Part shown: positions 33,895-35,396 of the stretch, piece after piece
How the letters are laid out: each line of letters opens with the position of its first letter
Numbering within the stretch: position 1 is the first letter of the stretch
DNA from: an uncultured Gammaproteobacteria bacterium
GTDB lineage: Bacteria > Pseudomonadota > Gammaproteobacteria > Xanthomonadales > Rhodanobacteraceae
Direction of reading: 5' to 3'
Assembly (NCBI GenBank): GCA_963708785.1
Contig: CAVPTJ010000010.1
Coordinates: 111,399 to 175,398 of the forward strand
Length of the DNA: 64,000 bases
Made by a program: the position numbers and the translations under genes
Notes under the pieces: model-generated
Database searches by the model: none
Seen by the model: only the letters and a program-made list of their open reading frames with translations
Told to the model about the DNA's origin: nothing

Positions 33895-35187
33895 CTACTG
33901 GAACGGATCGGTCAGCGCGATGGTGTCGTCGCGGTCGGCACCCGTTGCGACGAGTGCGATATGCGTTTCGGCCAGTTCCTCGACCGCGCGCAGATAGGCG
34001 CGCGCTGCGGCGGGAAGCTTCGAGAATTCGCGCACACCGCAGGTCGATTCGTCCCATCCGGGGAAATCGAGATAGACCGGTTTGCACTCGTCCCAGCCGG
34101 CCGCGTCGAGCGGTGCCAGTTCGCGGCGCTTGCCGCGATATTCGTAGGCGATGCAGACCTTGATCGTCGGCAGGCCGTCGAGCACGTCGAGCTTGGTGAT
34201 GGCCAGACCGTTGATGCCGTTGATCTGCACCGCGCGCTTGAGCGCGACCAGATCGATCCAGCCGCAGCGGCGCGGGCGGCCGGTGGTCGCACCGTATTCG
34301 TTGCCGCGCTTGCGCAAGGCATCGCCGGTGGCGTCGGTGAGTTCAGTCGGGAACGGACCGCCGCCGACACGCGTCGCGTACGCCTTGCAGATGCCGAGCA
34401 CGTAGTCGATGTCGCCGGCGCCCACGCCCGTGCCGGCGTACGCGCCGCCGACGGTGGTGTTCGACGAGGTGACGTACGGATACGTGCCGTGATCGATATC
34501 GAGCAATGCGCCCTGCGCGCCTTCGTACAAAATATGGCCGCCGGACTTGCGCACCTGGTGCAGCGTGGTCGAGACGTCGTCGATCATCGGATTGACGTAG
34601 TCGCCGAAGGCAAGCGCTTCGTCGAGCGTCTTCCGGTAATCGACTTCATCGGCCTTGAGCCAGTGCTTGAGCACGAAGTTGTGATAGTCGAGCACGCCGC
34701 GCAATTTGTCAGTGAGCTCGTTCGGATACATGAGATCCGCCACGCGGATGCCGCGTCGCGCGACTTTGTCTTCGTACGCCGGACCGATGCCGCGACCGGT
34801 CGTGCCGATCGCGGATTTGCCGGCGGCCTTCTCGCGCGCCTGATCGATGGCGATGTGGTACGGCATGATCAGCGGCGTGGCCGGACTGATCTTCAGGCGC
34901 GGACGCACGTCCACACCTTGCGCTTCCAATTCGCCGATTTCTTCCTTCAGCGCGGCCGGCGAAAGCACGACACCGTTGCCGATGAGGCACAGCACGCCTT
35001 CGCGCAGGATGCCGGACGGTATCAGGTGCAGCACCGTTTTCTTGCCTTTGATGACGAGCGTGTGGCCTGCGTTGTGGCCGCCCTGAAAGCGCACCACCGC
35101 GCCGACGCGCTCGGTCAACAGATCGACGATCTTGCCCTTGCCTTCGTCGCCCCACTGCGCCCCGAGAATTACGACTGACTTGCCCAT
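33895..35187 (-). CDS. purA: Adenylosuccinate synthetase
   Basis: [44 protein letters not shown]. Confidence 0.98.
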
Positions 35188-35377
35188 TTGAATACTCTCA
35201 TGCTCATAGCCCGATACATGGCGACGTCGGTGACTAGGTTCGCGATCCATCGCTCACCAAGTCACCCGGCCTCCGGCATCCTGCCTCCGGCGCTCGCCGG
35301 ACGAGATGCGCTTCAACGCATCTCGTTCATCCGGCTCGCCCCCACTGCGCCCCGAGAATTACGACTGACTTGCCCAT
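35150..35377. repeat. Exact 38-bp direct repeat of the purA 5' end flanking a hairpin-rich insert
   Basis: 35150-35187 is identical to 35340-35377; hairpins at 35229-35266 and 35296-35335. Confidence 0.95.
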
Positions 35378-35396
35378 GTCTATTCCACTTTATCGA

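Follow-up and report, generated by a model that had tools for sequence, protein, structure and literature searches.

Why does purA begin twice in this genome? In the window, by which we mean the whole 64-kb stretch of DNA analysed here, a repeat search returns an exact 38-nt direct repeat at 35150-35187 and 35340-35377, spaced 190 apart, confirming an initial annotation that had seen the first 38 bp of the gene doubled. That annotation had offered three readings: a non-autonomous element aimed at gene starts, which it would rebuild; an integration scar; or a uORF with an RNA switch for purine synthesis. We favour an extended form of the first. The 190-bp unit, made up of the hairpin body and a copy of the purA start, is one member of a multi-copy, protein-free hairpin family; it is probably non-autonomous, moving as folded single-stranded DNA that is cut and joined after GG. 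Sequence comparison points to an apparently undescribed family of hairpin elements, with evidence for target recognition encoded by the element itself.

A doubled purA start around a folded insert

The locus reads on the minus strand, with the following features.

35397..35582, minus strand: DUF2065 gene, the upstream neighbour (Pfam)
35327..35377, minus strand: 16-codon stub ORF, of variable length among homologues
35340..35377, minus strand: upstream purA-start copy, 38 nt, a stranded start ending in the GG of Gly13; the left junction follows
35188..35339, minus strand: element body, a 152-nt non-coding insert defined by repeat, fold and covariance model R1
35289..35339, minus strand: hairpin 1, whose basal helix joins the left junction to an internal segment across tandem G-A pairs
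35275..35285, minus strand: hairpin 2 core, loop with GGA; GCAGGA is invariant in 52 purA units
35229..35266, minus strand: hairpin 3, tandem G-A internal loop and GGA loop, with two-sided changes in 7 of 11 pairs
35220..35226, minus strand: guide-like segment able to pair with the right junction, over 7 bp here and over 9 bp in most homologues
35195..35199, minus strand: putative weak RBS-like GAGAG preceding the working ATG
35150..35187, minus strand: downstream purA-start copy, the working start and presumptive 3' part of the mobile unit
35145..35151, minus strand: right junction, GG then CGACG, equal to the empty target site and paired with the guide-like segment
33895..35187, minus strand: intact purA, adenylosuccinate synthase, 430 aa (NCBIfam purA equivalog)

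As first described, the upstream copy lies 19 nt past the stop of the DUF2065 gene, which ends at 35397, and encodes a 16-codon stub; the GAGAG stretch, of putative function, was located at 35199-35195. The reported hairpins are present together with the CCGGAGGC-AGGAT motif, which is itself a third hairpin (hairpin 2). The observation that one G fewer would bring the two ATGs into frame with a single TGA between them holds for the window copy and is not conserved in homologues: unit length modulo 3 is 1, 0 and 2 in 36, 18 and 14 of 68 units, and the purA frame contains 0-5 stops. Frameshift or read-through use was rejected on the same comparison.

Misassembly is excluded for the window's doubled start. 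A 343-nt contig of run X1, which may be the source sample, covers 35194-35536 with 0 differences, and cultured isolates have the same layout.

The predicted RNA fold of the insert reaches -72.1 kcal/mol (z -4.58), a value equalled by 0 of 200 shuffles. Folded as single-stranded DNA, the insert and its junctions score z -4.62, and this fold of the window copy predicts both junction helices unprompted. Model R1 matches at 35223-35342 with 115.9 bits; two further weak R1 matches in the window, both within coding DNA, were rejected as noise, and blastn, an HMM and R1 find one copy in the window's own genome, which is 60% complete. No inverted pair joins the two ends of the window's insert, no terminator was found in the insert region, and Rfam 15 gave a best E of 4.6 in the window, with no riboswitch, ribozyme or intron match.

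Two other features of the window were recorded. At 35414-35387 (minus), ending 10 nt before the upstream ATG, lies one weak sigma-70-like match (9/12; 0.2 expected by chance). At 40399-41105 an ordinary HigB-type toxin gene (Pfam PF09907) and a probable antitoxin directly precede miaA-hfq.

A hairpin family at purA and at other genes

Searched at the DNA level, 40 relatives yielded this insertion in three genomes: G004 and G016, each with two tandem units, and G039, which belongs to another family. Among genus relatives with purA in view, 2 of 22 sites are occupied and 20 of 22 are empty. A pattern for the interrupted start extended the set to 63 GTDB stretches, nearly all from Lysobacterales or unassigned Gammaproteobacteria and including cultured isolates; three of these repeat other loci in the set and two come from one genome. 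An intact purA lies downstream in 54 of the 63, and the other 9 stop at a contig edge. In 54 complete loci the purA units are 146-235 nt long, contain no ORF and always follow the GG of Gly13, a junction inside the conserved GDEGKG loop; several other junctions of the family fall in glycine-rich cofactor motifs. In metagenomes, all 25 of 25 matches to the hairpin pattern, read by eye, are at purA, one of them without an upstream stub.

Occupied and empty sites are mixed on the purA tree. Element types partly follow host clades, with short units confined to Lysobacteraceae, which points to much vertical inheritance with loss. Judged from these sequences, gain and loss have likely both occurred at the purA site. 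The correlation of element with host identity (rho 0.34) is unreliable, as an indel in L080 broke the ungapped comparison.

Other material lies upstream of purA as well. Two loci, L028 (G037) and L220, retain an element remnant of hairpin 3 and the guide with no upstream stub, which suggests decay by loss of the 5' part. The gap is a hotspot for other repeats (L186, L005, L014, L003, L012): L186 (G007) holds a small, Ssn-like GIY-YIG gene between CGTC-type palindromes, and the other four hold lone palindromes.

The family reaches well beyond purA. R1 counts 0-35 copies per relative genome, is present in 21 of 24 genomes of the genus and matches in 14 of 150 other Gammaproteobacteria; an order-wide pattern and a 12-mer genus pattern proved too loose for copy counts. 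A consensus of 38 diverse copies begins GG-GYGAG and covers the three hairpins. In a census of fetched loci, GG precedes 70 of 74 distinct left ends. A flanking duplication ends at the junction in 17 of the 74, compared with 0 of 72 controls, and in 31 the element's own TGA or TAA closes an upstream open frame, after Gly in 30 of these; 5 further left ends belong to the second unit of a tandem, and the remaining 21 fall in no class. Empty fumC-like and HIT orthologues in G000 also end Gly-stop. These classes carry some error, for two rows scored as stops (L044, L058) belong to antisense pilin-like genes whose open frame arose by chance, and the thresholds missed known duplications at L039 and L052.

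Duplication length varies by target, from 2 nt at ffh to about 95 nt, and is 33-94 nt in most duplicated cases. Duplicated starts occur at mnmG, an argC-like dehydrogenase, pdxA, cobalamin adenosyltransferase, a transketolase-family subunit and a molybdopterin oxidoreductase, and tRNA genes (Pro, Cys, Ser, Arg and others, isotypes by eye) have duplicated 5' parts. The module is also found at HIT and hsdM genes. At ffh the element body is inserted cleanly between GG and GG. Antisense copies duplicate 3' gene ends, at a ferritin/dps-like gene (L052) and at L283, which points to a process at the DNA level.

The initial annotation had asked whether other copies also duplicate the adjacent gene; in the census, 17 left ends have a flanking gene or tRNA duplication. 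Its reading of a non-autonomous element that targets and rebuilds gene starts is supported. That reading can be widened: copies are found at stop codons and antisense gene ends and within tRNA genes and other repeats, and they carry a segment complementary to the target.

Rfam at 20 family loci gave passing matches to tRNA and tmRNA only, and the phage and plasmid collections contained no element match. Two patterns run on viral contigs gave 21 and 53 matches and no full element; the look-alikes L236, L246 and L253 are partial GGA-hairpins that we found unconvincing. No description of the family was found in the full texts searched, which take in few subscription journals, and the supplementary repeat-family lists of PMC6006769 and PMC11893778 could include it.

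Individual copies show further arrangements. The ffh insertion (L032, L033; two genomes) lies in the Gly-rich tail and would cut off or change the C-terminal end of the SRP protein, and an antisense copy at L313:1500-1621 (G441) breaks hsdM, a type I methyltransferase gene, with no replacement visible. In L044, L047 and L058, antisense copies overlap the pilin-type N-methylation motif with their left end, so that the first codons of these genes are read from the element's reverse strand. Six copies (L298, L300, L319, L382, L384, L402) lie within another palindromic repeat family, L298 with that repeat duplicated; L317 and L325 adjoin tmRNA and smpB in two other Gammaproteobacteria. In G535 (L332, L334, L336, L338, L339) the module comes as inverted doublets carried by a larger multi-copy element that is bounded by terminal inverted repeats; the arrangement is MITE- or REPIN-like and has a possible transposase link. 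At L441:1250-1460 a GGA-loop mini-hairpin is nested in CGTC-type repeats around an Ssn-like gene.

Junction pairing and the two starts

The initial annotation had made its case depend on whether the structure is conserved. Across 52 purA units the named structure is paired in 97.3% of cells, with two-sided change in 17 of 35 pairs; its score lies above 500 of 500 shuffles, and slid controls reach 29-45%. By this comparison, the fold of the element is under selection.

The fold reaches across both junctions. At the left, the target GG and the element's first bases form a helix with an internal segment, and the two sides covary: column 7/61 is C-G in 35 units and T-A in 17, 52 of 52 with no exception. 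At the right, a 9-nt segment directly after hairpin 3 is complementary to the junction, which is identical to the empty target. Of the sequence 3' of hairpin 3, this guide is conserved best, and the adjacent spacer is free to vary.

Guide and target also change together. Of the 10 loci with T at target position +4 (Asp third position), 5 have A in the guide and the other 5 keep a G-T wobble, against guide A in 0 of 54 loci with C; at +1 (Gly third position) guide A occurs in 2 of 3 loci against 0 of 61, the rest again being a G-T wobble. Fisher values of 3e-5 (+4) and 1.5e-3 (+1) are overstated, because kin are not independent, but the guide changes fall on separate branches (L120, L125, L205/L219, L224) and so amount to three or four events. 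Pairing with the left junction is possible too, but the guide follows the right one: only 1 of 17 left-end T variants is matched. Since the target bases lie outside the unit, the match is not simple co-inheritance of the unit's own sequence.

Beyond purA, copies at mnmG, the argC-like gene, tRNA-Pro, tRNA-Cys and tRNA-Ser carry segments that by eye are complementary to their own junctions, and some duplicated copies have no obvious guide (L168, L182 and the short purA units L105 and L132). GNA triloops, a motif stable in DNA rather than RNA, occur in 31 of 64 tails of other copies, compared with 9.1 in shuffled tails (maximum 18). The wobble pairs in the guide helix fit RNA as well as DNA.

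The two purA starts are identical in 29 of 66 loci. Elsewhere, 116 of 126 differences between them fall at third positions, and 115 changed codons are synonymous against 2 non-synonymous, a count that excludes the decayed stubs L078 and L123, with L208 at a contig edge. Differences that are nearly all synonymous imply that both copies derive from working genes. On this codon evidence the upstream copy is no stub left to decay over a long time. Either a relative recently supplied the downstream copy, or both starts are selected through excision or use. Seven of the nine loci with at least 6 start differences have no amino-acid change, compared with 774 of 3377 cross-locus pairs; measured by nearness to empty relatives, the upstream copy is clearly nearer in about 3 of these nine, the downstream copy in 1, and neither clearly so in the rest. 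Identity between tandem units is mostly 93-100%, a level that slippage would explain as well. The two units of L120 are only 75% identical, as fits separate insertions.

These data bear directly on an alternative in which the hairpin repeat is mobile and enters at GG, while the adjacent gene end is copied locally by template switching or repair. The antisense segment would then be no guide but a by-product, re-copied or homogenised, and tandems would arise by slippage. We consider it unlikely, even with duplication lengths that run from 2 nt upward, so many identical starts, near-identical tandem units and several copies that lack a visible guide. Decay of a local copy would touch every codon position, yet the differences are almost all synonymous; the guide is best conserved right beside a free spacer, with pairing kept by both wobble and exact changes; and L120 holds two unlike units.

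A reading at the RNA level is quite doubtful. Here a transcript would excise or bypass the unit between the GG junctions, by splicing or a ribosome hop, or RNA would template the insertion, and both starts would be used. The coding constraint seen on both starts would suit it, as would the G-U wobbles kept in the guide helix, the stop or CGA codon directly after Gly, and the conserved GGA loops, which resemble the consensus of CsrA/RsmA sites and are candidates for binding. It fits poorly with antisense copies that have the same layout (L052, L283), with copies in non-coding repeats (L298) and tRNA genes, and with the lack of any ribozyme or intron match in Rfam. Nor does copy number go with reverse transcriptase, which is absent in 6 of the 7 genomes with at least 24 copies (incomplete MAGs); one RNA run gave no reads over the insert, and the downstream start makes splicing needless.

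A leader of uORF and RNA switch that senses purines and so regulates purA is not supported and very improbable: the insert is structured and sits directly before the working start, its guide helix enclosing the RBS and first 12 codons in the single-stranded DNA fold of the window copy, but the same module occurs at mnmG, argC-like, pdxA, cobalamin adenosyltransferase, ffh, HIT, hsdM and tRNA genes, is absent from 20 of 22 genus relatives at purA, varies in frame and in how far the stub runs into the insert (1-61 codons), and shows no riboswitch match or terminator. The element may still affect purA expression as a side effect. Hardly any weight falls on the residue of an integrase-carrying island at the 5' end of purA with its interior lost, the earlier integration scar, for such islands do replace gene ends, as at dusA and prfC, but the 54 complete loci hold no ORF and no unit above 235 nt, phage and plasmid collections gave no match, and one module under selection for its fold sits at dozens of unrelated targets with GG alone in common.

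How the unit may move, and what it resembles

In the favoured reading of a mobile single-stranded hairpin unit, the hairpin body and its purA-start copy would be excised together as a circle, in which one internal segment would hold the circle (left) junction while the other is free to pair with an empty target. An enzyme acting in trans would cut and join after GG, with re-insertion directed by guide pairing. Insertion would strand the host's first 38 nt upstream, and the carried copy would restart the gene; the right junction would remain a perfect target, so that tandem stacks of units could build up. An insertion would survive only where the gene still works, which would account for the bias towards gene starts and stop codons, antisense gene ends and the 5' parts of tRNA genes. 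More tentatively, the family may represent a widespread class of minimal, self-addressed DNA element with a generic three-hairpin engine, an evolvable guide of 7-20 nt and a captured gene end, homing to the most conserved motifs of essential genes and tRNAs through a host or unrecognised enzyme; we regard this as possible rather than probable.

No mobilising gene was found beside 22 element loci, whose neighbours are housekeeping genes. IS110 does not track copy number, being absent in 5 of the 7 genomes with at least 24 copies (incomplete MAGs), and R1 has no match at 12 IS110 loci. The Y1 transposase (PF01797) is absent from G000, G004, G007 and G009 and present in G016, all incomplete genomes, and neither Y1 nor GIY-YIG genes go with copy number. 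R1 gave no significant match at GIY-YIG loci (the best 30 of several hundred class-wide matches, and 7 genus loci) and one match at 38 other nuclease, transposase or reverse transcriptase loci, beside a degenerate Y1 fragment. Replication-strand bias stands at 30 of 55, with a skew signal too weak and noisy for firm calibration. Eight runs gave no excised allele; runs X6, X7 and X15 have no coverage of the insert. In run X3 one contig of 216 nt loops back from position 35339 to 35150. The assembly word is shorter than the repeat, so a circle, a tandem copy and an assembly-graph artefact all fit.

Several known systems share parts of this design. IS608, of the IS200/IS605 family, is described in PMC6006769 and PMC5934647 as having hairpin ends in single-stranded DNA, an internal guide that base-pairs with the cleavage sites, one per end, and a circular intermediate. 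Like IS200/IS605 and its transposase-less derivatives, the element has hairpins, base-paired junctions and a guide-like segment within itself. In IS200/IS605 four nucleotides 5' of the hairpin foot act as the guide, the target is not duplicated and the element brings no gene end, whereas the present segment is 7-9 nt long, lies 3' of the last hairpin, pairs across the junction and is target-specific, with a flanking duplication in most duplicated cases of 33-94 nt; in these incomplete genomes no linked Y1 transposase was found apart from the degenerate fragment, and lagging-strand bias was not seen (weak skew signal).

REP, REPIN and BIME repeats with RAYT, and SRM with Ssn, appear in PMC3733652, PMC3116915 and PMC11893778 as short multi-copy hairpins, patchy and in tandem, whose ends supply stops. 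The element resembles REP, REPIN and SRM in its non-coding hairpins, patchy copy number, tandem clusters and stop-supplying ends, and a REP beside a RAYT-like gene in G016 has the same tandem G-A and GNA-loop motif. REP and REPIN have a GTAG or CGTC foot on a 20-65 nt palindrome, whereas the element has no such foot and spans three hairpins over about 110-130 nt; unlike REP and SRM, it sits inside conserved coding motifs and tRNAs and brings replacement gene ends. No RAYT or Ssn gene was found beside it.

IS110 bridge-RNA elements have, according to PMC12288879, a dinucleotide core at both junctions, small circles, tandems and separate recognition of target and donor. The element shares with them a dinucleotide (GG) at both junctions, tandem copies and, probably, separate recognition of its two junctions, but no left and right target-guide loop was identified in it and the transposase does not track its copies. 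ISPpu9 is said to have a non-autonomous module, ssr9. Classical MITE features are lacking, for the element has neither terminal inverted repeats nor a fixed short target duplication.

Integrative islands at tRNA, tmRNA, dusA and prfC genes split their target at a fixed base, restore it with a carried fragment and leave a stranded copy. The element likewise replaces a gene end and leaves a stranded copy, but is 150-235 nt long, has no integrase or cargo and uses one module on many targets that share GG. Mycobacterial MIRUs are small intergenic units at gene junctions, with overlapping stop and start codons and tandem arrays; compared by description only, they match the element in size, position, start/stop overlap and tandems, and to our knowledge they carry no gene-start copies or target-complementary segments. 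By analogy, the element would work most like IS608-type guided transposition of single-stranded DNA combined with REP-like repeats and island-like replacement of gene ends, and it departs from each in a defining feature.

In these bacteria the element explains mis-called starts and short pseudo-ORFs at purA, mnmG, pdxA and ffh, and it could serve as a workable model for the many hairpin inserts that lack an enzyme and are flanked by duplicated gene or tRNA ends. Cultured strains carry the family, among them Rhodanobacter sp. A1T4, Rudaea sp. 3F27F6, Mizugakiibacter sediminis and Vulcaniibacterium thermophilum, so it is directly testable. Long-guide, site-specific single-strand transposition has been engineered into IS608, as reported in PMC5934647. 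If the complementary segment directs insertion, the family would be a natural counterpart of that engineered system and its enzyme a new programmable DNA-joining activity. If the self-addressed class is real, it would be a programmable insertion system in fewer than 200 bases, with DNA as its own guide.
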